A model generated the notes under the pieces. The model was not told the origin of the DNA. It made no database searches and saw only the letters and a list, made by a program, of their open reading frames with translations. The translations under genes were made by a program, and so were the position numbers. A stretch of DNA of 62,657 bases, counting the filler, from Sluysia triapertura (Eukaryota): NCBI GenBank assembly GCA_046118255.1. It is 5 parts of 5 records of this genome, joined end to end, with 100 filler letters (N's around TTAATTAATTAA, not from the genome) between each part and the next. Parts side by side here need not be neighbours in the genome. Positions count along the whole stretch, not along the records: positions 15,117 to 26,790 come from JBJNIA010181361.1; 4 more parts are not named here. One strand, 5' to 3'. Shown here piece after piece: positions 3,808 through 50,695 of this stretch (the stretch's first letter is position 1; every line of letters starts with the position of its first letter).

Positions 3808-5679
3808 CGTTCTTTATGCCTTTGCAACTTTTAAAATTAATTCTTTGACTTGATTCGAAATTAAATTTTGTGCCAATAATTTCGTCATTAAAACAAAAAT
3901 AATAGTAAATTAACAATAATAATAAAGTAATAAAATTAATAATAATAACAATAATAAAATGATAATAAAAATAATAAAGTAATAATAAAATAATAAAAAA
4001 ATAAAAATAATAAAATAATAATAAAAATTATAATAATGAGTAAACTATAAATATGTAAATTAAAAGTTATATATAAATTTTCTTAAATTGATATTTTTTC
4101 TAAAATGCTTTACCATCGTTCTATTCCTTTCTTTTGAGCTCCCAATAAAGTCTTATTTTCTATTTTTATATTATTCGATGTGTCCCTGCCTTGAAGCTTC
4201 TTTTGTAAATCTTTTTAATTTTTTATAGAATTAATTTTTTGAGATTCATGAATGTGATTTTTAATAATTCAGATTCATCACTACTATTAGGTTGTTGCAC
4301 GCTTCTCCATTTATCGTGGTTTTTTAAATGATGTAATTGTTGAACTCGATCAGAACTGGAAGAACGTTTTTTTATTTTTCTGATCGCTCTATAAATTCAT
4401 CATCAATTGTTGTATCTGTCATATTTCTAGAATAATTAGAACACATTAAATCTATTTGAAAATGAATGAAGTTTCAATTAAGTCAGTAAATTTCGCAAAA
4501 TAGATATTGTGAATAATTATTATCTTTTAAAATTTGATGCGTACAATGTTTTCCGAATGTTCTAATTTGCCATTGTAATTTTTTCGATTCTGTCCGACGA
4601 GTTATTACTTCTCATTCTTTGTCATTATTTTATTATGTCAAAATATTATACTGCAAACTCCATACCTTTAACTATTGTCCGCATAACAGTATTAAATCCT
4701 ACTCACTAAACGAGATATGAACAGCAATGAAAAACATTTTGAAAAAATTAATCCTTTTATCACTCTAAGAATTTAACACAGTGAATGTAGCAACTCCGAA
4801 TAAATTTTGTTAAGTTCTGAAGTGATTGAAAAGTCGCTGCATACTTTTTATGAGGTAGTTTTTTATTAGCAAGAATGTTTATAAATGTTGAGTAAAAACA
4901 ACAAAGAAGTACAAAAATGATTTATGAAGAACACCGGTTGACATGATAAGAATTAAATGACATGCTTTTTTGATTCTTTAAGAAATTTTAAATAAGTAAA
5001 ATTTAAAAAGAATATGTTCTTTTGGATATTAAAAATGTCTTAAAGTATGTAAGGTTGAAATATTATCAAATAATTAAGACGAAATTAAATTAACAAATGT
5101 CTAGTTTAAAATGATCATTAAAACTAAATGATTTTTTAATAGTGATGTTAAAATTTCCAAAGTTTTAGAATTTACAATAATAAAAAGGTAGTGCTTTAGT
5201 GATGATGAGATGGCAACAAGCGTTATGTATAAGAAAATGTTAATAAAAAAAGATTTTATTACGTGTCTGTGATTTGTCGGAGATAAAAGTGTGATACTGC
5301 AAATTTGTGAATGTGATTTATTTTAATATGATTTTTGTTTGTGATGAGGTTTATGTGATTGATGGTTATAGTGAATGAGATTTATGTAGTATAATGAGGC
5401 GTGACACCACACCGATCTACTAAGGGGAAATTTTTAAATTAAAATTTAAAATATGAAAACCATAAAATATTAATTTTGTTTATTTGATTGCACTATTATT
5501 ATTATTTGGTAATAAACAATTGAATTTTTCTTATATTGTTGTGAATTTATTTTTTGACAAGAGATTCAACAAAGAATTAATTGGCAAGTCGTAATAATAT
5601 AAGATTTTGATTTTGAATTTAATTTATATATTTAAATTATTCAAAGCATATTGAGAATTGGATTGATTAAAATTATTAG

Positions 5680-5852: not shown

Positions 5853-6346
5853 TAAATAATAAAAATTCATAAACAATAGGTCAACAACTATAATTTTAAT
5901 AATAACGTTAAATTTTGATTGTAAAATTGTCTATGATTATTAATAGTATGATAGTGGACATATTTGAATTTGTGTTGTGATGTAGTATAACGATTCTTTT
6001 TGTTGTAGGATATATGCGTTATTTGCTGATTTGATACATGTGTTAAATTCATTGAACTTTGTTTAAGATTTTATTTATAATAAATGTGTTGTGTTGTGTT
6101 GATGTTTGTCTATGATCACAGGATTAATATTAATATTTATGAATTTAACAGCCTTATATTGATGAAACGTATTATTATTCCACAAAAATATTTGTTTTGT
6201 AAATAAATTATACAGTGCTGCTTAGAAATTTGCCAATATGTTTCTGTAGCTAACGTTTTAGCATCTATTGTGAATATTGTTCTCATATTTTAATATTAAA
6301 TGTTCAATGTCTAATCACGTTATTAACGATAACGATTACAGATACT

Positions 6347-7180
6347 TTGAAAAAGGATCCGTCAATAGTTATTTTAATAATTTCAGTCACGTTATTCATT
6401 ATCGCAATGTTAATAACTTTGCTAATGATTATGATGTTCATTACGAATAAATGCAATTATACTAATTCTAACTCCAATGATGGTAACACTGATCATTATT
6501 CAATTCCGAGAAATAACAGATTCTATGCTCCTCCTCCAGGACTACCGTTACCACCAATACCATCATCAATATATGAACACGATACAGATATAAGATTACC
6601 AACACATTATAGTGGATTTCTAATATCATCGGTACTACTGTGTATTTGTTTAATAACGACCATAGATTCTCTTGATATAACCAGAAATAAGTTAAATAAG
6701 AAAATATTTTACAATATTATACAAATAACTATTCAAGCTAAAACCGACGTTATAATAGTCGTAGCTAAACAAAGAGAGGAGAAACTAGTTAGTCTATCTA
6801 TAAACTGTTGTTTCAATAAGTTTTGTACTACTTCTTCAACACCAATTAAAGCTTGGTGTTGGGTAGTAGCCTGTGAAGATTTATTCGAATCTCACTTACA
6901 TCAAGTTAAAATAACAATGGAATTAATAAGTAAAGTAATACATACACAATATTATTTGATTGAAACACTACCTTATGTATTTTATGGTGAATTCAGTAAA
7001 CAATGGTTAAACTGTTCAGTAACGGCGCTAGTTAACGAAATTGATTTAATCAAATTAGTTAATCCTTTAGTAAATAACTCAATTATAATAAGATATGGAA
7101 CTGATAAAGAAACTATTGCCGTACTAATTCCACCGAAACATACCACTATATTAAAGTACTATCCTGATTCAATTTTTTAG
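6347..7180 (+). CDS. Accessory ORF X: membrane protein with hydrophobic helices, Pro-rich linker and Cys-rich domain
   Basis: 277-codon open frame; hydrophobic N-terminus, PPPGLPLPPIP, second hydrophobic stretch, CCxxxxC...WxxxCxDL; decayed homolog at 45030-45815 (-). Confidence 0.65.
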   Translation: MKKDPSIVILIISVTLFIIAMLITLLMIMMFITNKCNYTNSNSNDGNTDHYSIPRNNRFYAPPPGLPLPPIPSSIYEHDTDIRLPTHYSGFLISSVLLCICLITTIDSLDITRNKLNKKIFYNIIQITIQAKTDVIIVVAKQREEKLVSLSINCCFNKFCTTSSTPIKAWCWVVACEDLFESHLHQVKITMELISKVIHTQYYLIETLPYVFYGEFSKQWLNCSVTALVNEIDLIKLVNPLVNNSIIIRYGTDKETIAVLIPPKHTTILKYYPDSIF

Positions 7181-15116: not shown

Positions 15117-15507
15117 TAATATACCTTGTAAATTTTAATTTTTATTATTGAATTAAATTTAACTTTTATAGTTATAAATTACAGAAAAATCTCACGACAG
15201 TTAAAAAAACTTTTGCTAGAGTATAGATCTAACCTTGTAATATAATCATTTCGATCCTATTTCACAGCATCAGCGAAAAATCATATTTAAATCTTTAAAT
15301 AATTTTTAATTATTAAATTAATATATAATATTTGAAATAATTAACGCATATCTAAGAAAACCTAATCATTTTTCACTTGACCTCCACTACTTTTTTCTTT
15401 ACGCAAAATCCAACGGCTAGCCCTCGCTGGTAAGTCCAGTACATTGGTGAACTCACAGCTTTAAATTAACCTTTATTCTATTAACGTTTAACTTCAACCT
15501 TCTCACA
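15117..15507 (+). mobile_element. LTR, family A, copy 3; putative 5' LTR of element copy 1
   Basis: Motif at 15406-15457; ends TTCTCACA about 40 bp before the gag ATG. Confidence 0.65.
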
Positions 15508-15546
15508 GTATTGTACGACGACTAAAGAGTAAAATTAAGAAATTAA

Positions 15547-15830
15547 ATGGCATTACCTAACGATTTCAGTTAGTAAAAGATATAAATCCCTTATATACCT
15601 TACCAGAAATGAGATGATTTAACGGAGCAGAGGAAAACATCTGCACTTTTCTTTTCGAATATGAAAGTATCGCAGAAGCAAACGACTGGAATGAAATTGA
15701 GAAAATTCAGAGAATAAAAAACTATTTAATTCAAACTTGTAAGGAAATAAGTAATAATGATAAGCAATCTTGGAATGCATTTGTAAACACTTTTACCGAG
15801 GAGATAGGCTTCGATGTCATGGCAAAATAT
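15547..15830 (+). pseudogene. gag: gag (capsid N-terminal part)
   Basis: FNGAEENICTFLFEYESIAEANDWNEIEKIQRIKNYL..SWNAFVNTF, a typical Ty3/gypsy capsid pattern; stops and a frameshift. Confidence 0.75.
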
Positions 15831-16497
15831 TGCGAGAAAGGTATAGAATAAAATAACGATTAGATTAAAAGCTTGAGTCCACCAACGTACTGGACTTACC
15901 TGCTAGGGCTAGCCGTTGGATTTCTATAAGATAAGTGCAAAAATAAAAGTTTGCTTTCTAGAATTAAATTCTAGGTTTTTGAAAACAATAATCAGTGAAA
16001 TTTTAATAGATTTTACGACTATTTAAGTTAAAAAATAATGATCCAAAAATTCATTTATTGAATATAAAAGTGACAAAATAATAATAGAATAAAATATTAC
16101 TTTAATTAACTGTTATTTGTTAATTATATCTAAATTAAATTTATTGCAGACTTTTCCTTGGATCTTTATAAGATCCAAATTGTAATTATATAAGATCCAA
16201 ATTGTAATTATATAAGATCCAAATTGTAATTATATAAGATCCAAATTGTAATTATATAAGATTTTAAGTGTATTTTACTAATGATATTAGATTATATCGA
16301 AAAACTTATAAATAATTAAACTAACGTTACTAAATCAATTGTTATATAAAACTGTCTTTAATCTTGATCCAAAAAAATGCTTCTGATTTATACCAAACCT
16401 TCAATCGGCTACACGAATCTTGTTTTTGGAATAAGAATTTTAAAAAAATTTGTTGTGATGAATAAAATATCAAGGAATTTATTTATCTGAAAAGACA
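15831..16497 (-). mobile_element. LTR, family A, inverted, between gag and env (right end approximate)
   Basis: Inverted motif at 15870-15923; terminus TGCGAGAAAG; contains a 22-bp x4 tandem repeat (16168-16262). Confidence 0.6.
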
Positions 16498-16899
16498 GTA
16501 TTACAAGCAAAGAAAGGAATAGATACAAAAAAATTAAAATTGGATACATATTTTAATAATAGAATCGATTTAGGACTACTGTCATTAGAAAAAGTCTACC
16601 AAGCAATGATAGCTAGAGACTGTCAATTAAACAAAGAAATACTTAGAACCAAATTAGTGGTAGCAATAACCAACCCAGACATAGTAACACCATTACTTCC
16701 TTTAGAAGAAGGAGTCTTTGATAGATTAATGGGTGAGGTTTTATATACTTATAAATGCAAAAAAGTGGAAGTACAAATCAGGCAAGAAAATGAATGTACT
16801 AATGAATTGCCAGTAATATACGAAAATCAAAACACCGGTAACAAGAATAATTAAGCCAACAAATAAATTAAAGCCAAAAACTTTACACTGTTCTAAAGT
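16498..16899 (+). pseudogene. env: Chuvirus-type glycoprotein (env), segment 1
   Basis: DCQLNKEILRTKLVVAITNPD..GEVLYTYKCKKVEVQIRQENECTNELPVIYEN..PVTRII..CSK matches the C.L.K..L...PD / GEV....KC..VEV.IR....C..ELPV pattern of chuviral G. Confidence 0.8.
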
Positions 16900-17239
16900 C
16901 GTGGTGGTACAGCCTCATAGATCACGTACACTACCCTTACTTTAATCAAGAATCACACAAACTTCAGTACAAAAATCACACTAAAATAAAGTACAGTTGT
17001 AATCTTTACATTATTACACCTTTCATCACTAACAAAACATAGACGTATAATAAACTCTAACATTTTTTAATATTCTGTTTATTGATATAGAAGTAACCAT
17101 TGTCGTCACGTCAACACCACTCCTTTAGTATATCCTTTTTATACAGAATTATAGTAAATGATTTATACATCGTGTAATATTTTATATTCAAGATTTATAC
17201 AGTACTTTTGCAAAGACATTTCAAGCAATTTCTTTCTCA

Positions 17240-17690
17240 AACGATCTTTCCTCGCATGTTTGCGTAGAAAATAAATAGTAATTCCTGTTCGCGGTATCAA
17301 CTGTGACCACTTACAATGTTTTGATGCAAACTTATATTTACAAATGAACGAACGTCGTGCTGTTTGGAAGTGTCCACTTTGTGATAATTCAGCAACGTTG
17401 TCAGAATTGTTTGTTGATGAATTTTTTGTACTAATTCTAAAAAATTGAGTACAACGAGGAAGCGACTGAAGTAAACGCAAATTCTGATTGCAGTTTTATA
17501 CCAGTCATTCAAAAAAATAAAGGTAACAGAAAGAGTGACACGTTTAACCTGTGCTTGATCGTGAAGAAACAATGGCTGAAAAGGTGCAAATAGTAATGAA
17601 TCGAAATTAGAATCTGTTATAAGTTTAGATAGTGACGAAGAATCTGAAGATAATGTCGATACGTCTACAAATCAAGAAGACATAGTTATT
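17240..17690 (+). pseudogene. PIAS: PIAS-type SUMO E3 ligase fragment: SP-RING (zf-MIZ) plus SIM/acidic tract, intronless
   Basis: IPVRGINCDHLQCFDANLYLQMNERRAVWKCPLCD..LFVDEFF..IL, then VISLDSDEESED; contains stops. Confidence 0.85.
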
Positions 17691-18246
17691 AAACAAGATT
17701 CAGTGTTAAATGTTTTTAAAATATGATGATATTTTTAATAGCATGTTCAATGTGTTCATTCAATTCTAATTCTATTTCACTTTCAGTATCCCAATTATAA
17801 AAGAGTAATTTTGTTCTAATTATTAACAATTCAATTACATGTGTCACTGTGCGTTGCACAACTCATTTTTATTTTTTGTAAGTTTATGATCTCCGTCTAG
17901 TTTGCAACTTTTCATTAATTTAACATTTATTTCTAATTAAATCTGATGATTATGGAGCTTCCTCGAATTACATATATGTTTAACTAGTTTTGAATTATTT
18001 CCTTAATTTCATTGTTAATGCGTCAGAGTGGACAGAATTTATTCGGAGTACGTTTTCGAGTTAACTCATTTTTGTGCCGTTATTTCATTAATTACGTATT
18101 TATGTATCCTTTCTTGTTTATTTTTACTGATTTTTTAAATGGACCAAAATAAAACGAAGAATCCATAAAAAATGGTTTAGTTTTAATAATTCGAGATAAT
18201 AACAAAGTTTAACTTCGGAATCTATATATCATAAAATTGTCAATAA

Positions 18247-19030
18247 ATGCTCATTTGTGGAATAATCTATAAAAATATGAATTCTTATTGGTACTTTTTC
18301 TCCTTTTTACGTTTTCATTATAAATTTGCGTCAACTCGAATTAAAAACCTAGATTTTTTAAAAAGACAGGATCCTGACCAAAGAAAAGATATGACCAAGC
18401 AAAAAGTTAAAATTAATGAAACTTTAGTCAGTATGAAAGATTTCAAAATTCCTAACTTTGAGTTACCGCATCAAATGAATAATGCTAGTTTGGAAGTATT
18501 ACGTTGTAATGCGACTCGTTCATTCCAAATAACTATGAGTAATTATAAAATATTCATAATATCACCTAATTCAGATCAATCGAATAAAGAACTATTTTTA
18601 AGTCAATTTCCACAAATTGACTTAAATACATTCGAACCATTATTTTCTATGAAGTGTCTGCATGACCATGTTGTTGATGGGATGCAATCGATTATCAAAA
18701 GTTGTAGATCGAGTTGGTCTATTTATTCAAATGATTATTTGTATATATACAAGATTTGAAGTATGAGCAGTGTGATCCAAAAGGCGTATGGAAATTGCGT
18801 GTAGTTGGATACCTAACTGATTGTTTAAATTCAAAATTGCAAACGAAAATGTTAGAAATTCAACGTCAAGTTTATGTATTCATGCAGAATCGTAATGATG
18901 AGTATTCTATTAGACAGGGAATATAGTTTTGGAGATCAACATGGTTTAAGAGTGGATGGAATCTTAGCGCTGGATAAATACACTGGTTTAAGGTTTGGAA
19001 CTTGTCTTGATGAATTGCTGCAGGCAATGA
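18247..19030 (+). pseudogene. Second cargo ORF, unknown (weak Ulp1/C48-like resemblance)
   Basis: 170-aa open frame continuing in shifted frames; LFSMKCLHDHVVDG and a later IHWF. Confidence 0.3.
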
Positions 19031-19321
19031 CGTGAGACGAACCTACAATAAATTTTTATTACGGAATATTTGTTAAACCTATTTACAATTTTATTTAGTG
19101 TATCAACAATGACTACCATTTTATGTAATAAAATCAATCGGTGTTATTTTTATTTTGTTCACCCTCTAAGACAAATACTAAGTATCTTTAAGTGCCTTAA
19201 GCACAAAATTGTTAATGAAGATTGTCTATACAATCAAGATTTTAAATGCAATGAGAAATTTTATGATCTTTTTAAGAGTTTTTTGAATTTTAATAATAAA
19301 AATATTAAACATTACAAAAAA

Positions 19322-19789
19322 CATGGCTCCAGAATATAAAATCGATGATAATCTTATAGATATCTTTACCACACAGAAGTCATGTTAAAACTCCAGAAAT
19401 TATAGGTTTGGCCGAATTAGAAACAAAGTTAAAATTTTAAGCTACAAAAAATATTCCAAGATCAGGAATTTTTTCTAATGAAGATATACAAGCAACTTGG
19501 CATGAAATATTATTCCCTATTAAGAGATCAAAAGTACTCACAGATATAGTCGATAAGGCAATTACAGAAAAAGATGGTAAGGTCAATTTTGAATTATTAT
19601 TAGGACTTGATCATTTCAAGAAAGCGTCACATAATACTTTAAAACAACTATGGGGAAACTTTTTAGTAATAGGTCAAACTTTTTCAAGATTAATAGTTAT
19701 ATATGTAATAATTAAAGTCACTGCTCTTATAATATCTCAAATATTTTCAGTAGTAGGTATTTATAAAATATCGAGATTTACATGGAAAT
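19322..19789 (+). pseudogene. env: Chuvirus-type glycoprotein (env), segment 2 with C-terminal hydrophobic anchors
   Basis: MAPEYKI..SGIFSNEDIQATWHEILFPIKRSKVLTDIV..LWGNFLVIGQTFSRLIVIYVII..GIYKISRFTWK. Confidence 0.85.
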
Positions 19790-20792
19790 TGTGAGAACAC
19801 TAAATCTTTGACTAAATTTTTTGATTATAATTTTTTATGTGTCTTATTTTATTTATTATTTTATTATTGAATTTTATATTTTATCATTCATTTATTTTAA
19901 ATCTCATATTAATTATTATAAAGATATTTTATAAATTAAATAAATTAAAATTTTATTAAAGTTTTAAAATTATAAATATTTTATTTTAAAAAATTAAATT
20001 CTTAAAGAAATTAAAATTTTAAAATTATAGATATTTTTATTTTATTAAAATTATTAATATTTTTATTTTGTTTAAAATAATCAAATTGAATATATGAATA
20101 TGAAATAAACGAATATGGCGGCTATAAATTTAGTATAGAAATGCTGAATTTTTAGCAGCCATATTAACAAGAAAACATTTTTAATCATCGAAAATTAAAA
20201 TACCAGAAGATATTGCAGTTTATGTTCCATGAAAGTAAGATTGTTTTCTTGTGTTTTTGAAATTCTTACTGTAACTAGGAAAACTTAAAATATTTAAACT
20301 ATAGTTTTGTTTTCCATCTTAGACCTTAATAAGGCTAAGTTAATTTTATCGATAAAATCACAATTCGCTAAATTTCATTTAAGCGGTAAAATCATTATTA
20401 TTATACATTAAATTTTGTTAAGTTATTGTTTAATTGTTATATTAATTTAACTTGTATACTATTGTAGTAAAAATATACCGTACGTTCTTGTTTCATGTAT
20501 TTTATTTTTAAAAATCATTTGTAATTTCACTAGACCATAAAAAGGCTAGCTTAACCTTTAAAATACATAATACTTTTGTTAGACAGTAAAAAGGTTAACT
20601 TAAAATATAATTTTAATTCGAATGTATTTGTCATAAATAAATATTACTTGATCGATCTTAAAAGTCCTACAAACCCCTACGTGACTAAATTTTAAAGCCT
20701 TCGTTCAGATTTAAGTTGTATTTATTAGGTGAACTAACCTCCAGAATCTTTTTGAAAGCACAAGTTAAGCTTTCTTAAATAAAACACTTGCA
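19790..20792 (+). mobile_element. Solo LTR, family B (1003 bp), 4-bp TSD AAAT
   Basis: TGTGAG...CTTGCA; AAAT at 19786-89 and 20793-96; excision restores WKLLIGCFPF, matching uninterrupted [10 protein letters not shown] at 48123-48094 (-). Confidence 0.9.
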
Positions 20793-20940
20793 AAATTATT
20801 AATTGGCTGTTTTCCATTTGTAGCTAAATTTCTATTACATCAGCACGCTCATGTTCAATTAAATTCTTTAAAAAAGAAAAGAAATTGAAGAAATAGCGTT
20901 ACAAACAATTAATATTGAACAAGTTAATGATGAAAAAGAA
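20793..20940 (+). pseudogene. env: env C-terminal tail / linker to protease
   Basis: KLLIGCFPFVAKFLLHQHAHVQLNSLK then EIEEIALQ, homologous to copy 2. Confidence 0.7.
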
Positions 20941-23569
20941 AACTTATATCAACCTCAAAGAAATCTAGTTTATATAATATGTGCGAATAATAATTACAAC
21001 AGTGCAAAAAGACCAATGGTAGATATGAGAGTAAATGGAAAAATATTATCTGCACTAGTAAATACAGGAGCTGTAGCCTCTTTAATAAGTGAATAATTGT
21101 TAACTACTAAACATCTTAAGAATTTAGCCAAACATTTATATGTCAGAGAAGTAACTGCTGATGAAATTAAAATATTTGGAGTATTAAAAATAAAATGTGA
21201 AATTGGACAAAATAAAATTGAAATAAAATATAGAGTTATGAGAAAATATTCAGAAGATATGATATTAGGCATAGATGTATTGTCACAATTAAAAGAGGTC
21301 TCATTAGATTTTAGCAAAGCCATACTGATAGACCAATAGATGACGATGATGTTATATTAGATGGCTACTCAGTAGAACTGAATGTATAATACCAAGTAAA
21401 ACGAATAGTTTAAGAAATGGCCCAATAATGTTCATTTCTTCGAAAAATAACCAAGAGAAATTAAACATAGGAATAGCACACTCAATTTGTAGGATCAGTG
21501 ACGGAAATATACCAATAAGGATAATAAATTATACAGATGAAAATAAATGGTCGTACAAAGGAACAAAACTAGAAGAAATAGTCAATTATAAATTACAAAC
21601 ACAAATAAATATGGATAAACCAAGAAATAAGAATATTAAGTTACAAATGGATATAAATTCGGAAGATGAAGAAGATTATGAAGAAATACAAATAAAGGAT
21701 AAGAATTTAACCGAACAGCAGAAAGAAACATTATATAAAGTCATTTATAGATATTCTTGGGCTGTTGCAAGAAATAAATATGATAGAGGAGATTCCTTAA
21801 TAATAAAACGCGAAATTCCACTAATTGAAGATAAAATGATAAGAAAGAAACCATATTGAATTCCATTGTGTAATCAGCAAGAAATGAAAGATCAAAGAGA
21901 TACAATAAAAAAGGCTGGAGTTATTATACCAAGTTTTTCTCCATTTTCATCGCCAGTATTATTAGTAGAGACAAAAGGATGGAACTATGAGATTTTGCAT
22001 TGATTGTTAAATAAAATAACAAGAAAGATGTATTTTCATTACCAAGAATAGATGAAATGTTGAATAAATTAAAGAATGGTAAATATTTTACAATTTTGGA
22101 TCTTCAAAGTAGATATTGGCAAATAGAGATAGAAGAGAAGGATAAACATAAAACAGCTTTTTCTTGAGGAGATGAATTGTAGGAGTGTGAAAAAATGCCG
22201 TTCGGATTAACAGGAGCACCAGCAACATTTCAAAGATGTATGAACATTGTATTATCTCGATGTAAAAATGTAAGGGTCTATATTGATGATATAATAATAT
22301 TTTCAAAAATTTTTGATACTCATGTAGTAGATATTGATATAACAATGAAAAGATTAGAAGTAGCAAGATTGAAAATTAAACCCACCGAATTTGTACGGGT
22401 AGAAGAACAAGTGTAATATTTAGGTCATATAGTTTCACATGAATGTATAAAGCCAAATCCAAAAAATATAAAAAAAGATGTAAAGTTTCCACCGCCAGAC
22501 AGTGTAAAGAATGTTCAAAACTTTTTAGGACTAGCAAATTATTACAGAAGATATGTAAAAGATTTTGCTAAAATAGTTCGACCTTTAAGAATGTTGACAC
22601 AAAAGAATGTAACATTTAAATGGACTGAAAGTTTTTATCGAATTAGAGAAAAATTTAACAACTGCCCCAATATTATTGTTTTCAGATATGAGCAAACCGT
22701 TCATTTTGACAACGCACGCTAGTAATTTTGCGATAGGAGCAATCCTGGAACAAAGAAATAAAGAAAATTTAGAAGGAGTAATAGCATATGAAGATTAAAT
22801 AAAGCTGAAATGAACTACTCTACAATAGAAAAAGAATGATTAGAAATAGCATATGTATGTAAATTATTCAGACACTATCTATTAGGACAAAAGGTATTTT
22901 TACATACAGATCATAAATCACTGACATATTTATATAACCATAAAGATGAAGTAAGTCGATTGAACAGATGGTTCACAAATCTGGGAGAATTTGACTTATA
23001 AATAATATATAAACCAGGGTCAATTAACAATGGTGCTGATTATATGTCTCGACTAACAAATACAGATGATAAAGCGAATTTCGGGTAAAATAGAAGAACC
23101 ATAGGAAATAATAAAACATCAGAGTGAAGATAAAGAAATGTCTTATGCATTTAAAGTGATAGATAAATGAAGAACAAGCTAAAAAGTTTCAATAACTGAT
23201 GAAATATTACGTTTCAAAGATTCAAAAGATGAATGGTAAACCATCGTACCTAAGTCATTAATAACTCCATTATTAATACAATACCACGATGGACAATTAG
23301 AAGAACACCTGTCAACAAGAAAAACATCACGAATTGAAAATAAATTTTATTGGGATAACACGGAAGAAGATATAAAGATTGGTGTACGTATTGTACTATT
23401 TGTTTGCAGAAGAAAGAATACAGGAACAAAAACAAAAGTACCACTAAAACCAATGATTATGCCTTTATCATCAATGGAATTCACAGCGATGGATATCACG
23501 GGACCACAAAATGACCTGAAGTTTATCCGATACCAAATCAGAAACAAGAAACTGTAGAAAAAATAATAT
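20941..23569 (+). pseudogene. pol: pol: aspartic protease, RT, RNase H, integrase (truncated)
   Basis: ALVNTGA; SPFSSPVLLV; LPRIDEML..LDLQSRYWQ..KHKTAF; MPFGLTGAPATFQR; VYIDDII; ASNFAIGAILEQ; NYSTIEKE; TDHKSL; ADYMSR; CTIC; AMDITGP. Many stops and frameshifts. Confidence 0.95.
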
Positions 23570-24540
23570 TGTGGGTGATTTTAAAAGATAAGACTCTTAT
23601 AGAATAAAATAGAATTTTAACGTGAGTCCAGTTAGGGCTAACCGTTGGATTTATGGAGAAAGGATTTGTTAAGTAAAGGTGGAATAACTTTCTCAAGTGT
23701 AAATTTAATAAGATGCTCTTACTTTAATTTCAGAACTTAAATGCTTATAGCCAAATCTGTTAATTTCTGGAGGTATTTTAATAAATGGGAGTCAGTGCAA
23801 GCTGTAGATAATTTATGAAGTGAAATTTAATATTTTATTAAATGAAAAATATTATTAAGAGTAGTTTACGTAGATCCTATGAAAAGGATCTGTAATAATT
23901 GATTTTGCGATATTAGAATTAAATTCTAATAGGAGAAATCTCTTCTTTAGTTTGAATTTTATATTTGAAACTCTAAAAGGTATCGTCAATCAAAATTAAC
24001 AACTAAGTTTTTTAATAATCTATTAACAAAAATTATAATGTTTACAAAGGATATTATAATATAAGAATAAGTTTAATCGTATTTTACGCAAGAACCGATA
24101 AATGGTTCCCAATTCGTTACAAAAATAAATTTAAATATATTTTACGTATGATACCTTTCAGGTATCCAAGCCTTAACAAAATAAACTAACTCAAAATTAT
24201 TTCGAAAAGAAAAACTGCTGCAATCTGGCCAAGGATAAATATCAAAAATATCTTCTGTCTTGAATGGCGTTAAAAAATAATGTATTGAAAATTGTGTGAC
24301 TTATGCATTTTACGTTGCTTATGTATAATTTATCTGACCTTGGCCAGATTAAAACAAAAATATTTATTATCAAAATAATTTAAAAGATATTTAAATTTAA
24401 TATCAAAGCTTACCTAAATTAGTTTTTTCAAAAAATTTAACAATATTTAATTTAATTACAAAATATTTATTAATTTAATTACAAAATATTAAAATTTACT
24501 TACATTTTATTAATTTAAATCCAAGGAATTATAAACAAAT
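23570..24540 (-). mobile_element. LTR, family A, inverted, truncating integrase (right end approximate)
   Basis: Inverted, internally deleted motif at 23621-23652; CTGACCTTGGCCAGA at 24333 matches 39219 inverted. Confidence 0.65.
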
Positions 24541-26919
24541 AAATATTAGTGAACAAAAATCAATAAGATTATAAACGTACAAAATATCAAAATTATAAAT
24601 GTACATAATATCAAATCATAAATGTATGTTATTAATTTCAGTGGGTCAAATCATAATCAGTGTGCGTATTGACAAATATTTCTAACCGATTTAATTTCAT
24701 AATGATTCATATACAATGAATCTTATACGATGGCTGTATATCTAATTTTCTCTACATTGACGTCAATGTTTGATACACAATGTATTTTATCGATACTAAT
24801 TAAGTGTAATGGATCTCTGTATATTTGTCTATTTTTTCTGACTTCTTTATTATTTAAATGTGTTTAACATTAATTTTTGCACTTTATAAAAATACTTTTA
24901 GGTGTTTAAACCTTTTTCTTAAGTTGCAAATTAAAGATTCGTGGATATTTGGATACTTTTGGACATTAAAAACAAAGTGAATCATAATTTAAAATTGTTT
25001 TCCGTAATTTTATGGGTTTTTATAATAATAATAAAGTTAACAAAATAAATGACCAGCAGCAAATGGAAATCATGGCTATAATACTGAACAAAGGTTACAA
25101 TAAGACATAACTAAATACTCAATAAAAAATAAAACTAAAAAACAATATTACAATAATGATATATAGCATGATTAACGTTGATATTTATACAACAGACGGC
25201 CATAGTAAAACTAATAGGAAATGAGTCATTAGTAATTTGTTAAAGGTAATATCGTTATTCTACAGGAGATTTGGTAATATATTGATATTCGATATTAAAT
25301 AAATTGTTCAAGATATAACAACCGAATTCGTTTTTTTCATTACACAATAAATCTTAATAAACAAAAATAACTGAGATTCTAACTTGTAATCTATTGGTTC
25401 TTCATTGGTGCTTATAAAAATATAAAAATAGATTTTTGTTGTATCCAATGATTAAGTTCAAATTTTGAAATGGCACTTCAAAATGCAGAAATAAAAGAAC
25501 TTTATTATAAGAAAAAGTACAAAATTTTGACACTATCATTGTTATTATAATAATTACTATTATCATTATTTGATTATTATTAATATTAATAATAATAATA
25601 TTATTATTGTTATTATTATTATCTATATTTATGAAAGCTAAGATTTAGACAAAATTTTATTTTATTCATATTTCAATTAATATTTCTATAAACATAGAAA
25701 AAGAGAAATAAAAGTACTTTTAAATGAATAAAAATAATTTGTTATATAAATTGATTATAAAACTCGACAAATGTATTCCTAATGATTTCAAATTTTAATT
25801 TCAAAATAAAATCCAGTTTAATAATGAAATATTTTTTTAACTTTTAATTATTATTTAATTATTTCTATTTTGAATATTTAAATATCATTTAAATATTATT
25901 TTCTTGAAATATTTTTTTAATTTACTTAATTAATAATAATATTTTAATTTGGAAATTAATTAATATAAATATTTAAATTAATTTATTTAATTAAAATAAA
26001 TTTTTAATTAAATAAATTAATTAAAATAAAATAAAATAGATCGTTTTTAATGATTGATAAATAACTGTTTCAATTTTTAAATAAAAATTGATTAAATAAT
26101 AAAATTGGAAAAAATACTAAATATATCTTAAAATAAAAATTACATAAATATTATTTATTAAAAAAAGCATTTAATTTCTAAAAATAAAAAATATAAACAA
26201 AAAATCGATATCTTTTCTTTTTTACATCTGTTTCATTTTATAATTAAATGTAACGGTAAACAATGTACAAAAAATCAATACATTGTTTATTCTTCAATTT
26301 CAAATAAAGTCATTATTAATTTTTTTGCAGGAAAAAATTGATTAAGGACAAATTTTGTTGTTAAATTTTGTTGCCGTTAGTTAAACGTCTGATAAAAATT
26401 TTTAGATAAAAAAAATTAAATCAACATATGTAATATAAATATAAATTATGTTTATATTAAAATGATTATAATTCATATTTTATAAACACTTTATCCAATT
26501 TTATTTATAATTTAAAATTATATAAATTTTATTTATGAAAGTTATATCGTCAGTTCAATTTTTATAATTATTAAGATTTGTAATTAGCCAATAAAAATGT
26601 GTTATTTATGTAAAATTTAAAATATGCATAAATTAAGTTAATTTTATTATTATTAATTGTATTATTAAAAATTTTATTTTGAAGTTAGGTAATAATATTA
26701 ATTAAGTTATGAAATTAGTAAAAATTAAAATTGATGATTGTAAAATTAAAAATATTATCAAACATTAATTTTCTTTTCATATTGTCTTATNNNNNNNNNN
26801 NNNNNNNNNNNNNNNNNNNNNNNNNNNNNNNNNNTTAATTAATTAANNNNNNNNNNNNNNNNNNNNNNNNNNNNNNNNNNNNNNNNNNNNCTGACTTATT
26901 GTAATAAAAACTAAAAATT

Positions 26920-37345: not shown

Positions 37346-38989
37346 TATATTATATGACAAGATATTTAAAAAATTTTAGTTTTGGTTTTTGTTCTTAAAT
37401 ACCTTATGGAAAACATTAAAGTAAAAAAGAATAATCCCAATACTACACACTGTCATATATTGATTATATTGCTCATTTGAAATGTACAATAAAAATAATC
37501 AATAAACACATAACTCTACTATAAACTCAATTATTAGTTTTCAAGTCAGTGAACAAATTTTGAAATTTACAAATTGGAATATTACTGCAAAAAATACAAT
37601 TGTAAAATGCAACAACACCAACAACAACTGCAACCATCATTTTCAGTAAGTTCTTGTTTTAATTTATTCAGAATTTAAACGATGAATCATAAATTTGTTT
37701 TTATAAATTAATGATTTGTTTAAAATTCCAATGTTTGAATTAAAATTGATGAGTCACAGTCATGGTACATATATAAAAAATGGGAGGGATAAATTTCTCT
37801 TGAGTATTGATGCATGCAATAGTTAGTTAAATTTATTGATAATAATAATAATTATTATTATTATTATTATTCTAACGAATTTGACAACTAAAATTGGATT
37901 AAGAAGGATTAATTGTAGATCAAGCAAAGCAGAAAAATAAAAAAGTAAGTTACGAGAAAAGAGAAGATAAATATTGAGATTTTATTTGATAATAAAATTT
38001 CGATTATGTTTATGAAAGTAGATATTTTTCAAATGATTTACTTTATATGACATTCGTTTGACTTACGAGTTTTATATAAACTTAGTATAACTAAACAATT
38101 AAGTCATTGTATTAATATTATTAAATATTATATATTATTGCATTATAATATTTTGTTTAATATATGTATTGTAATATATGTATAAAATATAATCATTTTT
38201 AATGGTTTCGAATTTTTATAAATTAAATTTGAACTAATTATAGTAATTACAAGTCTTATCCAAAGTTTTCTAAACATAACTATATAACCGACTGTAAAAA
38301 TTAAATAAAATTAATACTAAAATAAATTTAATAAAGTGTTACAGTTAAACAAAGAATAATTAGGCAAAAATTTAAAATATAATGTAAAATATAATATTTA
38401 GCAAGTATTTTGTAATTTTATGGATGAAAATAAAATTATATAAATTACAAAATAAAAAGTAATTTTATATTTTAAACAATTCTCTATTTTAATATTGTTT
38501 GTTATTTTATTATTCTTATCTGCAAAATGAATATTTAGTATGCATACGCCTGAAATATAAGGCTTATATTCTTCTCGAGAGACGTACCTACATTATTTTA
38601 AAGTATATTAGTAAGATCTGTATGTTTATCTTATTCTTTAATGACTGCTGTTACGAATTCTTTCTTATTAATCTTTATTTTACTGAAATAATTCATATAT
38701 AATAATCCCTTTGGATTCTTAAATTATTTATGAAACTTCTTTGCTAAAAACAAACCAAAGAATCATTAAATTTATTACTCAAATACAAAACTATTGAAAT
38801 ATACAAAATCNNNNNNNNNNNNNNNNNNNNNNNNNNNNNNNNNNNNNNNNNNNNTTAATTAATTAANNNNNNNNNNNNNNNNNNNNNNNNNNNNNNNNNN
38901 NNNNNNNNNNTATATGGTATTTAAAACCATATGATTCGATTATACTTGAAACATCATTGATATATATTATAAACAATAATGGACCAAAT

Positions 38990-39783
38990 GATAATTTATT
39001 GATTTATATTTGGATTTATATTTATTTTATATTTGGATAATAATAATTATTATTAATTTTGTAATTTACACGGATTTCTAATTAATTACTCTGATTTTTA
39101 TTTTGAAAACAATTAATACTAACGTATGTAATTTTTGTATATTATTAAAAAACTTTAATATTTTTTTAATTGAACTATTTTTGTTTTAATTGTTAAAAAA
39201 TAAATAATTTTGTTTTATTCTGGCCAAGGTCAGTTAAGTAAGTATTTAAACATCGTAAAAAATACACAAGACACACATTTTTTATAGTTTAAATTAAGTT
39301 AATACAAATTTTCAATATTTCATTTGGAAAAATAATTCCGTTGGACATTGAGATATAATTGTTTTTCAGAAAGGACTTGCCAGATTTTTCATACAAAATA
39401 TTTACGTTAGTTTATTATATTTAGTTTGGATACCATAAGTATCCACGTAAAATAAATTTTGAAACTTATAATAGTTTCACGTAAAATACATTGTTAAATT
39501 ATTAACTAAGGTTAATTTTTCGTAACATATTTATTAATATTTATATATCTTTTGTGTCATATTAAGTTTATAATACAAATTACTTGAGATTTTCTTATTA
39601 TTAACAAATAACTTCTACAGCTTTAAATTTATAAAAGTTTTTATCAGAATTTAATTCTGATATCGCAAAATTTAATTTGACTGACAAGCATTTAGGCAAG
39701 CATTGAAATATATTTTTAAACTTTTCAATTTCAAAAAGGTTTTACTTTATTCTATAAGTCTATTAAATAAAAAAATTCTCAAA
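38990..39783 (+). mobile_element. LTR, family A, decayed (3' motif deleted)
   Basis: TTTACGTTAGTTTA..GATACCATAAGTATCCACGTAAA and CTGGCCAAGGTCAG shared with the other A copies. Confidence 0.55.
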
Positions 39784-40518
39784 GATAAAACACGCGCGCA
39801 CATATATATTAAAGTTTTTCTTTTATTTAATAAATATTTCATGCGTTCAGTTTTGTTAAATTAACCACTATTAGAATAGCGTTAGAATGGACTCTCGTTC
39901 TTTTCACTTTCGTATTCCGTGAGAATCCGTTGTAAAGCGGACTCTATAGGCGGACCCATATTGACATTACGTTTATTTTGCTTGCAATTTCAGAATCAAA
40001 TTTTCCTTTATTTTGGAGTTCTATGTTTCTTACTTATCTCCTATTCCACAGTTGGACAATACAAACACTATTACTTCTCATTTCACCCATTCATCGTTAG
40101 TCTGTCTATACTATTTAACATCTGACCACTAAACTATGAACCCTATCTAACAATTTTAGATTATTATAGTCAATTGTACTATCATTATTCTTAAAGGCAC
40201 TTTAAACCTTACCTCAACAATTAGCGTTATTAGCAGCACTTATATTGTGAAAAATATTTTTTCATAAAGTCATTTTAACTATCATTTGAAAATTAATTAT
40301 TTGTATTTTTTGATTTATTGTGGTAACTCATTATATAAAACGACTTCATAAATTGAACATTTTATTTTATTCACGTTGCCATTAATAAAGTTTATAAACA
40401 AATTTCATTTGATACAAAATAATTATATAGACATTTTTATTTCTCCAAAAATATATTCCTATTATTTATTTCAATATTTAGGTGATGTACTTTAGTTTAT
40501 AAGAAAAATGATAATAAC

Positions 40519-41144: not shown

Positions 41145-41760
41145 ATCTAAATCATTGAAATTGGATTAGCGAACGTATAAATATATTAGAAATAAAATTT
41201 ATGATCTGTTAACAGATAAGAGTATATGACTCAATAATATGTGAAGCGTAATTTATGCATGAACTTATTAGTGTAAATGATATGTCATTAATAAATTTTT
41301 CTTTAAGAATAATACTAATTCAAACTTAAATAAATTGAAATATTTTGATGTTATGCATGATTCATTTTTTATCTACAGTTATAAATTAGTGTAGATTCAA
41401 TGACCTAGAACAAAATATTAAATTAAACTTTACTGCATTTTACTAACAATAATGTTTCGAGCAAAAGTATTTTATATTTGTGATAATTTTGTTTATATCA
41501 ATAAAATAATAAAAAGGTTATATAGATTAAAAGTATGTATTTTCTTTAAATAAATACATATATATTAGTTTTTGTTGATCATTTGTTCCATGTTTTATTG
41601 TATTAACCAAAAGTTAAAAGTAAGTGTTTTATGTATTAGGTATCAATTAGATGGTTCTTTTGTTAAATAGAATTAGAAATTTTATTTATTGTGTTAGTAT
41701 ATTATTTACATTCAAAATGTTTTTTGTTAGTTATTTCATATATCACATTAATTTATATAG

Positions 41761-44700: not shown

Positions 44701-47700
44701 ATGGTCAAGTTTCACCTTTTCTATACTGATATAAAAAGATGAGCCTTTTTACGAATGAATAAGTAAAATTCATGAGTCTGCATGATAAGATTAACTACAA
44801 GTGAAACGGAAAGGACAAGAATGAGAATGTAATTATTTAAAATAAAATCATGTAATATTAAAGAAGAATTGTAGTTAACAGATTTACATTGAATTTCACT
44901 TGGTGTTAGTATTAGTAGTTTCGCTGTGGGATCCATTTATATATTACGTGACATTGTATTTTATTGATATCGACATCCTTATCTATTACTGGTACTCTTA
45001 GATCGTATGCTCTAAGTGTTATATTTCGGTTTTACGTAGTATCCATATCTGTATTATCAACATTCTGGTACTTGGCAAATGAACCAAATTGATTTCCTGA
45101 TTAAGGGAAACTAATCCATACTGTAATCCATCATAAATTTCATGCGCAATAATATTAATAGTGTTTTCTAAGAGATTCTTGACCTGCGCTATGGCGATAA
45201 ATAGTCATTGGTAGTTCTACTGTCACTGAGAATTCCTGAAAAGTAAAAGGTTTCGTCCTAATTTTATATTTTTATATTAATACAATTTTGGAAACATCCA
45301 GTAAATTATATTCGACTTCCAACATAAACTTAACGTAAAACAACTGATATTCATAAAGATCATCACAATATGTTATCCAGTATAAAACGTGTCTAGAAGT
45401 TTGAAATTTGTTTTGACACCAGTTGGGAATACAGCATTGCATTATAACATTCAATAAATAGTATCATAAATGTCTCTTTGTTGAGCATCCTTTGGTATTA
45501 ATTCCTTTGCATGAAAATTGAAAGAAACAGAACCTCCACAATACATGTAAAACACGTGCATGCCACGCTCTGGCGAGTATGAGCTCTTTTGAACGCTAAT
45601 GATTGTTATTTTCTTACAGTATAATCATATATTGGCGGAGGAATTAACATTCCTGGAGGTGGTGTATAATTAACGTGATGGGGAATCGTACAATGGTCGT
45701 TATCATAATTAGAAGGTAAACAAGGATATTTGCATTTATTTAAAACGAATAGTACAATAATCATTATTACTGTAATGAATGCAATGATGAATGCAATTGT
45801 AACTGTGATCCTTTGGCACCTCTTAGCGAAAAATGTAAACGTTCCGTTCTCCTAGATGGGAAATGAATTTTAGCTATTATAAATTCTTCATTAGCCAAAA
45901 AATCAGAGCATATTACATATGAGTTCACTAAATTAAGTCTTGCAGGTCGAAGACAGATATCGAATATCTTTATACAGAATATCTTTAACTCGAATATCTT
46001 TATGCTGTAACTGGACTTTTATTTCCGTATTTGGATTATAGAAATCGAAATACTCGGATTTGAAAAATTATTACTATCTGGTCATGCATTTCTTTTTGAT
46101 TGTATATGGGCACTCTAAAGGTTTCTTATGATTTTATCTTTTATTAACGGTATTTCATGTTTGATTATAACAGAATCGCCAATATCATTTATTTTTTGCT
46201 ACTACCAATATATTCTGTCTTGTAGTTTTTTATTTGTAATCTGGATTTCTCCACTCTCCTCATCGTCTATCTCTCGTTTTATAGCATTAATTTTGCTTTT
46301 ACTTAAAACAGTGTTTATTTGTATTTCAAAAGTATAATTTACGATTTCCCAATTTTAAACCTGTATATAACCAATTATCATCATTGGTGTTCTACCTTCA
46401 CATATGTTACATACTGAATCTGCTATGCCAATGTCCATTTTTTTCCTGATTTGATTCCGAAGCTATGAACATTATCCTACTAGTTCGTAGACTAATGTAT
46501 TCATTTCTACATATTGGTTCGTCTAAAAATTAATTGTTACAGTGTATAGTTATTTTGAGTAGCTATACATCAATCTTGCCTTATCAAAATCCAATACTAC
46601 CCCCATAAGTTTTGACAAAATGTCCATTCTCATTATCATATAATCTTGTAGTTTCGTATTGTAATGGCCGGGTTAATTTGGAATTTACATTATAAAAAAC
46701 AATATTACTGATTATGGACTTAAGGTCCGTTCTAAATTTTAAGTATTTGATAACGTGAAAATGATATCTTTCATTACAAATAAATTCTCGAGAATTATAA
46801 TCGATAAAAAACGGCTTAAGGCCTTTCTTATTACTTTTATTTACAAAATTAAAATCATTAAAAATTGGCTTAAGGCCTTTCCTCAAAACAGTACAAAATT
46901 CAAAATAAAAGCAAAAATAAAACTCCACTTCATATTTTAAATCAAATAAAAACAATATAACTTCGTGGATACATAATTGTTCAACATTGAATTCAACCTA
47001 TCATTGAACCTGTTCAAATGTGTCTGCATTGAGAATTCTAGTATAACGTTCGAGGATGCACGAAAAAAATTAATTTGTAACATATCTCCGAGTGATTTAT
47101 TGCAACTACCAAATGTTTTGAAAATTTTTAAAATGTATAAAAATCTTTGAAAACTAATAAATTTTGAAATGTACATAAATTTTATATTAAACGTTATCTG
47201 GTTTTTAATTGGCCAAAAAATATCAGCAAATAATAAATGGATATTTGTACATGCAAGGATAGTTTCTTCTGGTTTCCTATTTGAACTCAAACACTGTTAC
47301 ATGCTTTATGTGTGCTTCGAATTTTAGATATATTGTGAAATATTCAAAGGCTTCCGAAAACACGTCTAAAGCTTCTGATCTTCTAGTGGATCTTGAAATA
47401 ACGTAGGAAAACAAAACCAAAAAATAGAATACCAAGTTTGAGTGTTATCGCAGGTTATGTTAATGCGAATGAGAGAGGCGACATTAGAGAACCAACAGTG
47501 CAATTAATTATCATAGTTTATATATTTATAATTCTATTTTAGATCTTATAGTCTGTATAGAATGTGGAAAGGTTATGATGTCTACGGAATATTTGTAGGT
47601 GAATTTGATGTAAATTTATGAATGTCTATGACACTATACGTATGACTCGTAATTTGATATCAAATTTATTTTGACTGAGTTCACAGTGAACCTTCATTAT

Positions 47701-50695
47701 TCCTATATTTATGTATAGCGTCTCCCATAACTTTTGTGAGGTGAGATAAATGGTAAGCAAGTCCTTTTAAGAGAGGCTTCATATATTAATGAAGCTACGG
47801 CTCCTGTGTCTATCAAAGCCGTAACTTCTCTTCCATTTATTCTTATATCAACCATTGATCTTTTTGCTCCATTGAAATTATTATTAGCTCAAATCACATA
47901 CACTACGTTTTGAGGGGGTGATATCGGAGAAGTAGAATATAATGGTTCCTTGGTTCCATCTTTTCCATCTACTGTGTTTTTGATTTTTCTATTTTTTGTG
48001 ATTTTGTATTTCTATATTCTCCACTTGTTGTCTTTCTTTCCTTAAGGTATTTATTTGCGAATTCGCATGATGATGTAGCAAATATTTTTCTAAAAATGGA
48101 AAACAACCAATTATTAACCTCCAAGTGAATCCTGAAATCTTATAAATCCCAACTACATACTTGGGAAATTATTATGCAGATACTGTTTAAACCTGAAAAA
48201 GCCTGAATAGGAAACTACCCAAAATGTGTCTTAGTGTATTTTATGCAGCCTTCTTAAAGTGATCCGGTCCTAACAATAATATAAAAGTTCCAATTCTGGT
48301 GCCAAATTTGTTAAATGTCTTTTCTTTTTTACTTAAATATGCAAATGTATAATAATGGGTTTCACGGTTTACTCTAGATGCAACGTTTGTCAATAAGAAT
48401 CAAAAGAAAAATATTACTTTCTCATGAGGATCTCTGCTATAATTAATACTTAATCATCAAAGAATTCTTTCAATCTAAATGTATACTCAATTATATTTTT
48501 AATATTCCTCTATAAGTTTATGTAAATTTATTTATTTCAAACTTTGTGGAAATTAAATTATTAACTCAGTAAAATTAATCAACAATTATTCAATCTTTTT
48601 AATTTTATCGGGCAGTTGTTAAAATTCTTTCTTTATTCAGTGCTGAACTATGTACTTTAATATTGAGTCTTCACCTTTCTACTTTCATTTCGCTATAAAT
48701 TTATCGGATTCAAATCTAGCAATAAAATCAACATCATCTATCTCATGATTGCAGCTTATCGCTATTACCTACCTTAGACTCTTCAATTTAATATTACTCT
48801 GATTAATTCCTCAAGCGCAAAATATTTAAAACGGGCTCGCGTACTGTCCACGTCTTATAGCAGGTGTGTTTGTTACCTTAACTCTTGCTTTAATCAAGAG
48901 TCAAAAGTGAAAATACGCAAATACAATAATTAATATTTTTAGAAAAGGTTTATGCATAGAAGTGAATGAAACACAAAAAAGCAAAATACAAATAAAATAA
49001 TTTAAATCAGAGACTTTGAATCTTAATAAATTTTAATAAGTTAAAAAAAGTATCTGTTGAAAATAATCAATAAATACAAGTAATATTAGAAAATTCGAAA
49101 ACTTAGATCACAAAATCCCGCAAAGAAGACTGTCTTTTATAATTAGTTTAATACTTCGTTTTTTGTATAATTTATTTATATTATTTGTTCAACAATATTA
49201 TATTATTTGTCTCTAATTCAATTCCGTTGTTGTCTTTTGACACACTGCCTTTGAAAACTTGTCATAATTATACGGTATTTTTGTACAAATTCACTGAGTA
49301 TTTATAGTCAGTTTATTTACCCAATCATTTTCTGTGAAATATTCTTCTTGAAATCAAAATTATTACACTTTCTTACGACTAATATTTTATATTTACAGCT
49401 TATTATCATTATTAATAATTTATAAATTATTATTTGAAGTTATTATCTCAATCCTAATACTGTATCATCACATTTGTAGGGAATTCATCACACAAAATTC
49501 AATAATGATAATTTAACAAAATGAATAATAATAATTATTAATAACACCAAACTATTTTTTTACTATAAAAGTATCGAGATTAGACATGTACTTTATCATA
49601 AATTCAATATGCAGAATTCAAAAGGAGAACGTCAATTGTTGTACCACTAAGGTTTTTAATAACTTTATTTATACCTTTTCTTTATTATACTTAAAGTTAA
49701 TATAATATTATACTTTGTTTCTGTTGTAAACTCGTTAATTGTTACAGGCATGAAGCCTATTTCTTTAGTAATTTTAAAATTAATACTTAATTCGTTTTTG
49801 ATTGTAAAGTTTTAATTAAATCGTTTAAAATAAATAAAATTGAATTAAGTTTAAGTAATTTTACGCCCTCACACAACATTCATTTATCTTGCCACACCGA
49901 AGGGTACGTCTACATCAATACTTTACGCACTACCAATTCTTCATTCTCAATTTTGATTCAATATCTACAGTAGCTCTTTTGTAATATGTTATCTTTACTT
50001 GGTCAATGTTACATTTATAATGTTCTCAATGTATATGCTAGCTATCTATTTGGTTCTAAAGTTGTTTTCTGGAAAACACTTTTAAAGGCTTTCTCCATAG
50101 GGTAACATTTTTTTCTAATTTGCTCCACACTTGATGAGCTATTCCATTTAAGAACATCGATATCTTATTAGCCAAATTTTTTAAAATTTATTTCTGTGAC
50201 AGTTTTGGCGGCTACCATCATAGATTTTAATAAATTTTAATAAACTTTCATAATGAAAATCAATTATAATTATAATTATAATAACAATAATAATAATAAT
50301 ATTAAATAAATAAAAATGTCTAATACGTTCCAGATTTAATACGATATCCTAGCCAGTCTTATGTGTTATTGTACATTTTATGAGGTAGTAATAGTCACAT
50401 TTAGCAGTCTATATTAATAGTTATTGCTGCACTAATCTCAAATCAATAATTCAAACTCTAAACTATTTTACTTATTTTCTAGGTAGAGCCTAATGGTAAG
50501 GCGGTGGGCATTGATCACATTGATGATTTAGTTTCAAAATCGATATCAAATTGTCAAAAATGTCCTGTTTCTAAGCGTCTTCTTGACAATGAAACGATCA
50601 AATTAGTTACTGGTGATGGACGTAAAGGTTTTGCTGAGATGAGTCCATATGATGGTATACATGTTGGTGCTGGAGCTGAAACTGTTCCATTAGAA
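41761..50695 (+). CDS. PCMT1: Protein-L-isoaspartate O-methyltransferase; exons 41761-41806, 41841-41977, 42045-42149, 50483-50695 (first and last exons not located)
   Basis: [21 protein letters not shown]|[23 protein letters not shown]|[21 protein letters not shown]; in-frame GT-AG junctions. Confidence 0.95.
44190..44936 (-). pseudogene. Homolog of accessory ORF Y
   Basis: Same relative position after the ORF X homolog; short colinear matches to 8310-9009. Confidence 0.35.
45030..45815 (-). pseudogene. Homolog of accessory ORF X
   Basis: [29 protein letters not shown]; LNKETF; [26 protein letters not shown]; EINLVHL..RYG, all colinear with 6347-7180. Confidence 0.8.
46660..47638 (-). mobile_element. 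Family C solo element/LTR (979 bp), 5-bp TSD CGTAT, inserted in the protease of copy 2
   Basis: TGTAATG...CACTATA termini; CGTAT at 46655-59 and 47639-43; removal restores LRVIRNY; internal GGCCTTAAGCC hairpins. Confidence 0.8.

Follow-up and report, generated by a model that had tools for sequence, protein, structure and literature searches.

The locus at 15.1–23.6 kb is best read, with a probability of about 0.85, as a dead copy, with two interruptions, of a multi-copy Ty3/gypsy element in which a chuvirus/gB-type env stands directly before PR-RT-RNase H-IN and likely behind gag, and which likely belongs to the planarian Burro / flatworm GAG-ENV-POL errantivirus group. The element is probably of flatworm origin. 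The window, meaning the whole 62,657-nucleotide stretch from the Sluysia triapertura assembly that we analysed, consists of five pieces with N-spacers between them; the locus lies on the piece at 15117–26790, and a second, diverged copy lies on a different piece, 38911–51668. Along the locus, a weak gag fragment is followed by the C-terminal half of env, a protease (PR), a Ty3-type RT, RNase H and the start of an integrase (IN), arranged as follows.

15117–15509, plus strand: LTR-like repeat, 3' part, ending in CA and cut by the start of the piece; four further copies align with it, three of them with the same terminal CA.
15609–15806, plus strand: decayed gag capsid fragment (20.7 bits against a Gag profile built from relatives; P0003 34–81, iE 4e-4).
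15831–16460 (right limit approximate), minus strand: inverted LTR-like piece with a 22-bp tandem array, standing where the missing remainder of gag and the env N-terminal half would be.
16462–16896, plus strand: middle part of env, class III, chuvirus/gB-type (PF24664 293–408, E 1.4e-19).
16897–19322, no strand assigned: secondary insertion with a zf-MIZ fragment (17275–17445, Pfam zf-MIZ E 1e-18) and orphan frames; joint present in other contigs.
19323–19789, plus strand: C-terminal part of env (PF24664 471–584, E 4e-15) with a membrane anchor (hydrophobic stretch, about 19660–19713).
19790–20792, plus strand: solo LTR of 1,003 bp, TG..CA, with AAAT target duplication; joint across it in other contigs.
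20793–20880, plus strand: env cytoplasmic tail (P0006 433–461; match to the second copy).
20990–21336, plus strand: decayed aspartic protease (RVP E 1.2e-4; tblastn; PR placed at 20872–21336 in the Pfam scan).
21350–22014, plus strand: PR-RT spacer and RT N-terminus (tblastn to P0004, P0008, P0010 and P0011).
22015–23061, plus strand: RT (YIDD) and RNase H, broken by stops and frame changes (Pfam RT 22015–22413, RNase H 22613–22998).
23093–23571, plus strand: integrase zinc finger (23240) and start of the core, halting at another inverted LTR-like end, 23570.
46120–48340, minus strand: second copy, diverged, with env C-terminus, split PR and RT start, within a PCMT gene intron.

The LTR-like repeat at 15117–15509 may have come in as a solo insertion or may be the 5' LTR of the element itself; no TGG primer site lies directly behind it, and no tRNA genes were found within the window. 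No LTR pair belonging to the element was recognised, the piece starting at 15117 and the 3' end being truncated. As a separate observation, an orphan ORF family occurs at 6254–7180 and at 45.8–45.2 kb, the latter directly behind the shortened pol of the second copy.

Both interruptions of the first copy are secondary, since in contigs of a single run, X1, position 16896 is followed directly by 19323 and position 19788 by 20800; these contigs represent other copies that lack both. The shorter flank of the first joint measures only 20 letters, that of another joint close to it 51. The solo LTR has AAAT on both sides, env homology resumes immediately behind it, and its relatives occur elsewhere in the window at 13.1–13.8 kb and 32.1–32.7 kb. 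The preliminary description, made from the DNA alone, had postulated precisely this ~2.4-kb insertion and an AAAT-flanked solo LTR, and the X1 joints bear it out. Summed contig depth is high over env and pol and low over the insertions; such depth is no copy number and gives only a hint of many copies.

The envelope was identified from two open reading frames, 16462–16851 and 19441–19791, which match successive parts of the 653-position Pfam profile Monjiviricetes_fusion and are colinear with single relatives, such as residues 847–973 and 1008–1151 of P0003. The expectation of one continuous glycoprotein C-terminal half after excision therefore holds for the colinearity of the two parts but not for the reading frame, which shifts near 16.84 kb and again near 19.35 kb and meets a stop at 19438. 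Four queries for the N-terminal half found no convincing match in the window. The env fragment shares 48–58% identity with the nearest env-pol polyproteins. For a close relative, P0007, which is 53% identical to the window env fragment, the predicted model (pLDDT 81) has the chuvirus G of Tacheng tick virus 4 as its best fold match (E 3e-44) and, among solved structures, matches herpes gB (E 4e-13), so that a gB-like class III fold is predicted for this envelope. When P0003 was searched by sequence against solved structures, no real match came up, and gB was reached by fold comparison only. The profile matches in the window, together with the P0007 fold, place the window env in the HSV-gB/chuvirus class III type that characterises GAG-ENV-POL gB-type errantiviruses, as had been proposed for its C-terminal half. 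A free-standing chuvirus insertion was rejected as an explanation of the locus.

With four LTR-like pieces and the 2.4-kb insertion packed into 8.5 kb, the region abounds in nested repeats, and the 3' env of a gag-pol-env element could in principle have come to lie beside the pol of another. We consider such a nesting accident highly improbable, and reject it for the env-PR junction, which recurs elsewhere. In the second copy, the env C-terminus at 48.3–48.0 kb runs directly into PR at 47.9 kb, the 1-kb insertion of that copy (46642–47650) lying inside the protease, and the copy stopping at the RT start. A separate X1 contig carries the same junction with 22–23 differences per piece. The distance from the env tail to the protease site is just 253 nt in the first copy and 295 nt in the second, which leaves no room for a gag between env and PR, an arrangement that would have spoken against the proposed order. 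Furthermore, in 14 of the 153 stored proteins that match the window env fragment, the env frame continues into a protease, and in seven of these on to RT; the 14 form 11 distinct 90% clusters and include 10 of the 11 best scorers. One distant protein, P0144, is labelled as having RT before env. As the preliminary description had held, the position of env directly upstream of pol, a hallmark of GAG-ENV-POL gB-type errantiviruses, is thus the layout of the element family and not a product of nesting.

The position of gag is less directly visible. Its fragment exceeds the five reversed or shuffled control sequences, which score at most 12.2 bits, and is cut by the inverted LTR-like end at 15831, so that the gag-env stretch is interrupted in this copy. 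No gag-env joint is among the X1 joints listed, beyond which there are 358 more. The claim of a gag upstream of env in the first copy accordingly stands as a weak fragment on the same strand and on the expected side, without a continuous connection. For the second copy, described as gag-env-PR, the env-PR part is confirmed, whereas neither the profile nor Pfam detected gag at 48.8–48.5 kb. The inverted piece and the deletion between gag and env, the modest gag score, and the fact that P0001, P0002, P0004, P0008 and P0154 start at cargo or env with no recognisable Gag would fit a genuine env-pol element whose apparent gag comes from a different element, or whose gag sits in a separate upstream frame. 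We regard this as improbable, because the fragment resembles the Gag of P0003, which is among the closest env relatives and reads Gag-CCHC-env-PR in one frame, and because Gag zinc knuckles (CCHC) precede env, in its frame, in five of 12 relatives inspected. The same 12 relatives show a hydrophobic stretch just ahead of the env start in eight cases and near the env end in nine. Judged from these sequences, gag likely lies upstream of env in intact family members.

The pol order PR-RT-RH-IN and the Ty3-type RT identify the element as Ty3/gypsy (Metaviridae), in agreement with the original assignment. The best solved-structure match of the window RT is Ty3 RT (E 4e-40), and all 120 matches listed in the RT search are RT/pol proteins with gypsy-type Pfam domains. 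Membership in BEL/Pao, as in the mosquito element Anakin, was rejected on these grounds; Anakin (PMC7642597, PMC12440569) is described as sharing the glycoprotein family but has a BEL/Pao polymerase. The PR-RT spacer gave no Pfam match; Burro has a dUTPase-like motif at this place.

In a quick env tree of 67 rows, with partial proteins left out, the 20-row group around the window takes in every one of the 14 polyproteins and is separated from 47 rows of free-standing length at an SH-aLRT of 96; five further members of the group are free-standing proteins, namely P0007 and four long branches. In a quick RT tree of 55 of 125 rows, the window RT, itself a long branch, falls in a 17-row group with all seven env-pol proteins, at an SH-aLRT of 90, which is below the program's starred level. 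A metagenome scan with P0003 yielded 204 pattern matches, none confirmed, and no locus. Post-integrase tails of six relatives had no convincing match in the window, their sole matches being extra protease copies.

The arrangement taken for a rearranged genome in the preliminary description, env between gag and pol, is not new, having already been published for planarian Burro and for worm errantiviruses. Burro / GYPSM1 are described as giant gypsy-like elements of Schmidtea and Dugesia, >30 kb long and with many cargo domains (Arkhipova & Yushenova 2019, PMC6431247). The same account reports env in frame between gag and pol, env matches to arthropod and fish mononegavirus fusion glycoproteins, cargo including Bcl-2-like and ankyrin domains, and decaying copies in Dugesia japonica. 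The window locus shares with Burro an env upstream of pol, and its nearest relatives share cargo: a Bcl-2-like domain precedes env in P0007 (E 1e-3) and, more weakly, in P0001 (E 0.2), and P0004 carries ankyrin. An env in frame with gag and pol is seen in relatives, while the window copy is too decayed to read. Unlike Burro as described, the window copy spans ~8.5 kb including its two insertions; taking Bcl-2-like, Ubi/SUMO, MATH, BIR and ankyrin domains plus giant size as the mark of Burro, Pfam and four queries found no cargo match in it, and we therefore call it Burro-like rather than Burro. Cargo may have been lost by deletion, or the family may be compact like P0003. It is conceivable, though doubtful, that the locus represents a compact, cargo-free, highly amplified sister family of Burro, with the orphan ORF family as its own 3' accessory membrane-protein gene and with its polymerase packaged via the envelope cytoplasmic tail.

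GAG-ENV-POL errantiviruses of HSV/gB type are reported from Platyhelminthes, Nematoda and Bryozoa (Chary & Hayashi, eLife 2026, PMC13524379), with nine flatworm elements listed, six of them from S. mediterranea. They resemble the window element in their Ty3/gypsy pol, in their gB-type env similar to Chuviridae G and probably in their order gag-env-pol, and differ in being intact with open frames where the window copy is decayed. These GAG-ENV-POL elements are stated not to be monophyletic, our searches returned no named Burro sequence and our trees contain no named reference, and a host search with the PCMT exon found nothing, which leaves some weight, if little, for a separate lineage from a nematode, a bryozoan or another phylum. 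Against such a lineage, the Domain I–II rows of Schmidtea errantiviruses 1–6 in the supplement resemble P0001, P0004 and P0010 by eye and end in the motif that opens the window env, which the nematode rows shown there do not, and the near relatives carry Bcl-2-like and ankyrin cargo. Non-canonical nematode ERVs (Sacco et al. 2022, J Gen Virol, as cited in PMC13524379) are likewise metaviruses with env and pol in flipped order and have an RNA-virus-type glycoprotein, whereas the nematode env rows in that supplement differ by eye from the window's relatives.

In intact members of the Burro-like family, a single long Gag-Env-Pol polyprotein may be made. Through a hydrophobic signal after Gag, the envelope would enter the ER lumen and be released from Gag there by signal peptidase, and the C-terminal anchor would bring the chain back to the cytosol. 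Pol would then stay on the envelope tail until cut by the element's protease, an attachment that could be the route of Pol into budding particles. Such particles would fuse with neighbouring cells via a gB-like trimer, followed by reverse transcription and integration as in any gypsy element. The present copy lacks half of env and the greater part of both gag and integrase and cannot run this cycle.

A gag-env-pol element with a gB-type env is already known, and the window copy adds a dead member to this published kind. For the question of how one Gag-Env-Pol polyprotein passes through the membrane, and of how Pol is packaged, the published intact elements offer better material than a broken copy. 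As one decayed example, the locus adds to the picture of the gag-env-pol layout with a gB-type fusogen as an old, amplified worm retroelement design.

The preliminary description reported a Ty3/gypsy element with a chuvirus-type glycoprotein between gag and pol, and the element is real and was for the most part well observed: in the copy under study (copy 1, 15117..23569, on piece 15117-26790), the envelope (env) is followed, in order, by protease, RT, RNase H and integrase zinc finger, and relatives agree. Ty3 is the best solved match of its RT (E 4e-40). The env of copy 1 is laid out as follows.

16462-16851: env, first part; open frame matching Pfam PF24664 (Monjiviricetes fusion glycoprotein) positions 293-408, E 1.4e-19
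16897-19322: insertion between the env parts, 2.4 kb; holds a PIAS-like zf-MIZ fragment and orphan frames (18247-19035)
19441-19791: env, second part; open frame matching PF24664 positions 471-584, E 4e-15
After the second env part: solo LTR, 1,003 bp; TG..CA, with AAAT on both sides

Both env parts are colinear with single relatives, which upholds the continuous C-terminal half described previously, but not as a single open frame; the N-terminal half is missing from copy 1, as searched in the window. The env tail picks up again behind the solo LTR, and contigs from other copies, in the one sequencing run that matched the window, join across both this LTR and the insertion, indicating that both are secondary. 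As the window may itself derive from this run, these contigs document further copies within one dataset and do not amount to an independent sample. The insertion, whose left end is similar to 5241-5372 on the opposite strand, could be a mobile element that captures genes. The solo LTR has two other relatives, both diverged, at 13.1-14.0 kb and 32.1-32.7 kb. An LTR-like 3′ end occurs five times (10689, 11533 and 15405, plus strand; 15923 and 23652, minus strand), with a common motif ~60 nt ahead of the terminal CA; ATAT follows three of the five, suggesting a target preference.

A gag-like fragment (15609-15806) scores 20.7 bits against a profile of relatives' Gag (five controls, ≤12.2), and since an inverted LTR-like end at 15831 severs it from env, any gag-env link is interrupted within copy 1. 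The integrase is cut short by an inverted LTR-like end at 23570. In the second copy (46120..48340, minus strand), said to read gag-env-PR, the env tail is followed by protease as in copy 1 (gap of 295 nt, against 253 nt), and likewise in another contig of the run, but profile and Pfam searches did not detect the claimed gag.

The window comprises five separate pieces joined by N-spacers, with G+C of ~25% and spliceosomal introns in its genes. The second copy lies on piece 38911-51668 within a long intron of one of these, PCMT (41843-50698, plus strand; tetraspanin-like neighbour at 40478-41165, minus strand); this intron, roughly 8 kb, is full of retroelement debris. An orphan 308-aa ORF (6254-7180, plus strand), with hydrophobic stretches, a proline-rich motif and no Pfam match, has homologues in decayed frames that immediately follow the truncated RT of the second copy (45809-45227, minus strand; iE 3e-10 and 1e-5). 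This family, which showed no match to the tails of six relatives, could represent a retroelement's 3′ accessory gene for a membrane protein.

The env-pol order is settled by relatives. A search of representatives with env returned 246 proteins at E ≤0.001, with 150 of them listed. Among 153 stored proteins matching the env fragment, 14 have protease after env in the same frame, seven of them reaching RT; 52 have the length of a free-standing protein, another 86 count as partial or other, and one, a distant protein, is labelled RT-before-env. The 14 represent 11 clusters, and 10 of the 11 top-scoring proteins are among them. One relative, P0003, reads Gag-knuckle-env-protease in one frame, and env-PR-RT-RH-IN order is found in P0008, P0010, P0022, P0029, P0004 and P0154. 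Polyproteins P0001, P0004, P0008, P0009 and P0154 hold two to four aspartic-protease domains each, some behind integrase. P0010, a gag-env-pol polyprotein filed in NCBI under a Flavobacteriaceae metagenome bin, most likely comes from a mis-binned animal contig.

In a quick env tree (67 rows), the window falls in a 20-row group with env-pol polyproteins (SH-aLRT 96) that also includes five free-standing proteins; a quick RT tree (55 of 125 rows) likewise groups it, as a long branch, with env-pol polyproteins (SH-aLRT 90). The predicted structure of a close relative, P0007 (pLDDT 81), retrieved chuvirus glycoproteins first (E 3e-44) and, among solved structures, herpes gB (E 4e-13, TM about 0.33-0.40), which together with the PF24664 matches supports the chuviral/gB type.

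Among 12 relatives inspected, a hydrophobic stretch lies just ahead of the env start in eight and near the env end in nine, with CCHC knuckles further upstream of env in five. The element's polyprotein might be threaded through the membrane, as flavivirus and alphavirus polyproteins are: Gag would lie in the cytosol, followed by an internal signal, the env ectodomain in the lumen and an anchor, with Pol back in the cytosol, freed by the element's protease. Pol packaging could run via attachment to the envelope tail. Copy 1 itself is dead.

The gag-env-pol layout is not novel, as GAG-ENV-POL elements of Nematoda, Bryozoa and Platyhelminthes, with gB-type env only, are already published (Chary & Hayashi 2026, PMC13524379, citing Sacco et al. 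2022 for nematodes). Nine flatworm elements appear in its supplement; by eye, six Schmidtea env rows there resemble the window's nearest relatives, a likeness that the displayed nematode rows lack. This likeness to Schmidtea indicates that the host is probably a flatworm; a host-gene search with a PCMT exon returned nothing. Burro, giant gypsy-like elements of planarians, likewise have an in-frame env between gag and pol, and carry Bcl-2-like, Ubi/SUMO, ankyrin and dUTPase-like extras (Arkhipova & Yushenova 2019, PMC6431247). Such Bcl-2-like and ankyrin domains are present in near relatives of copy 1, but no cargo domains were found in copy 1 itself, which is therefore termed Burro-like rather than Burro. 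Copy 1 is a decayed, newly found example of an already described element type.
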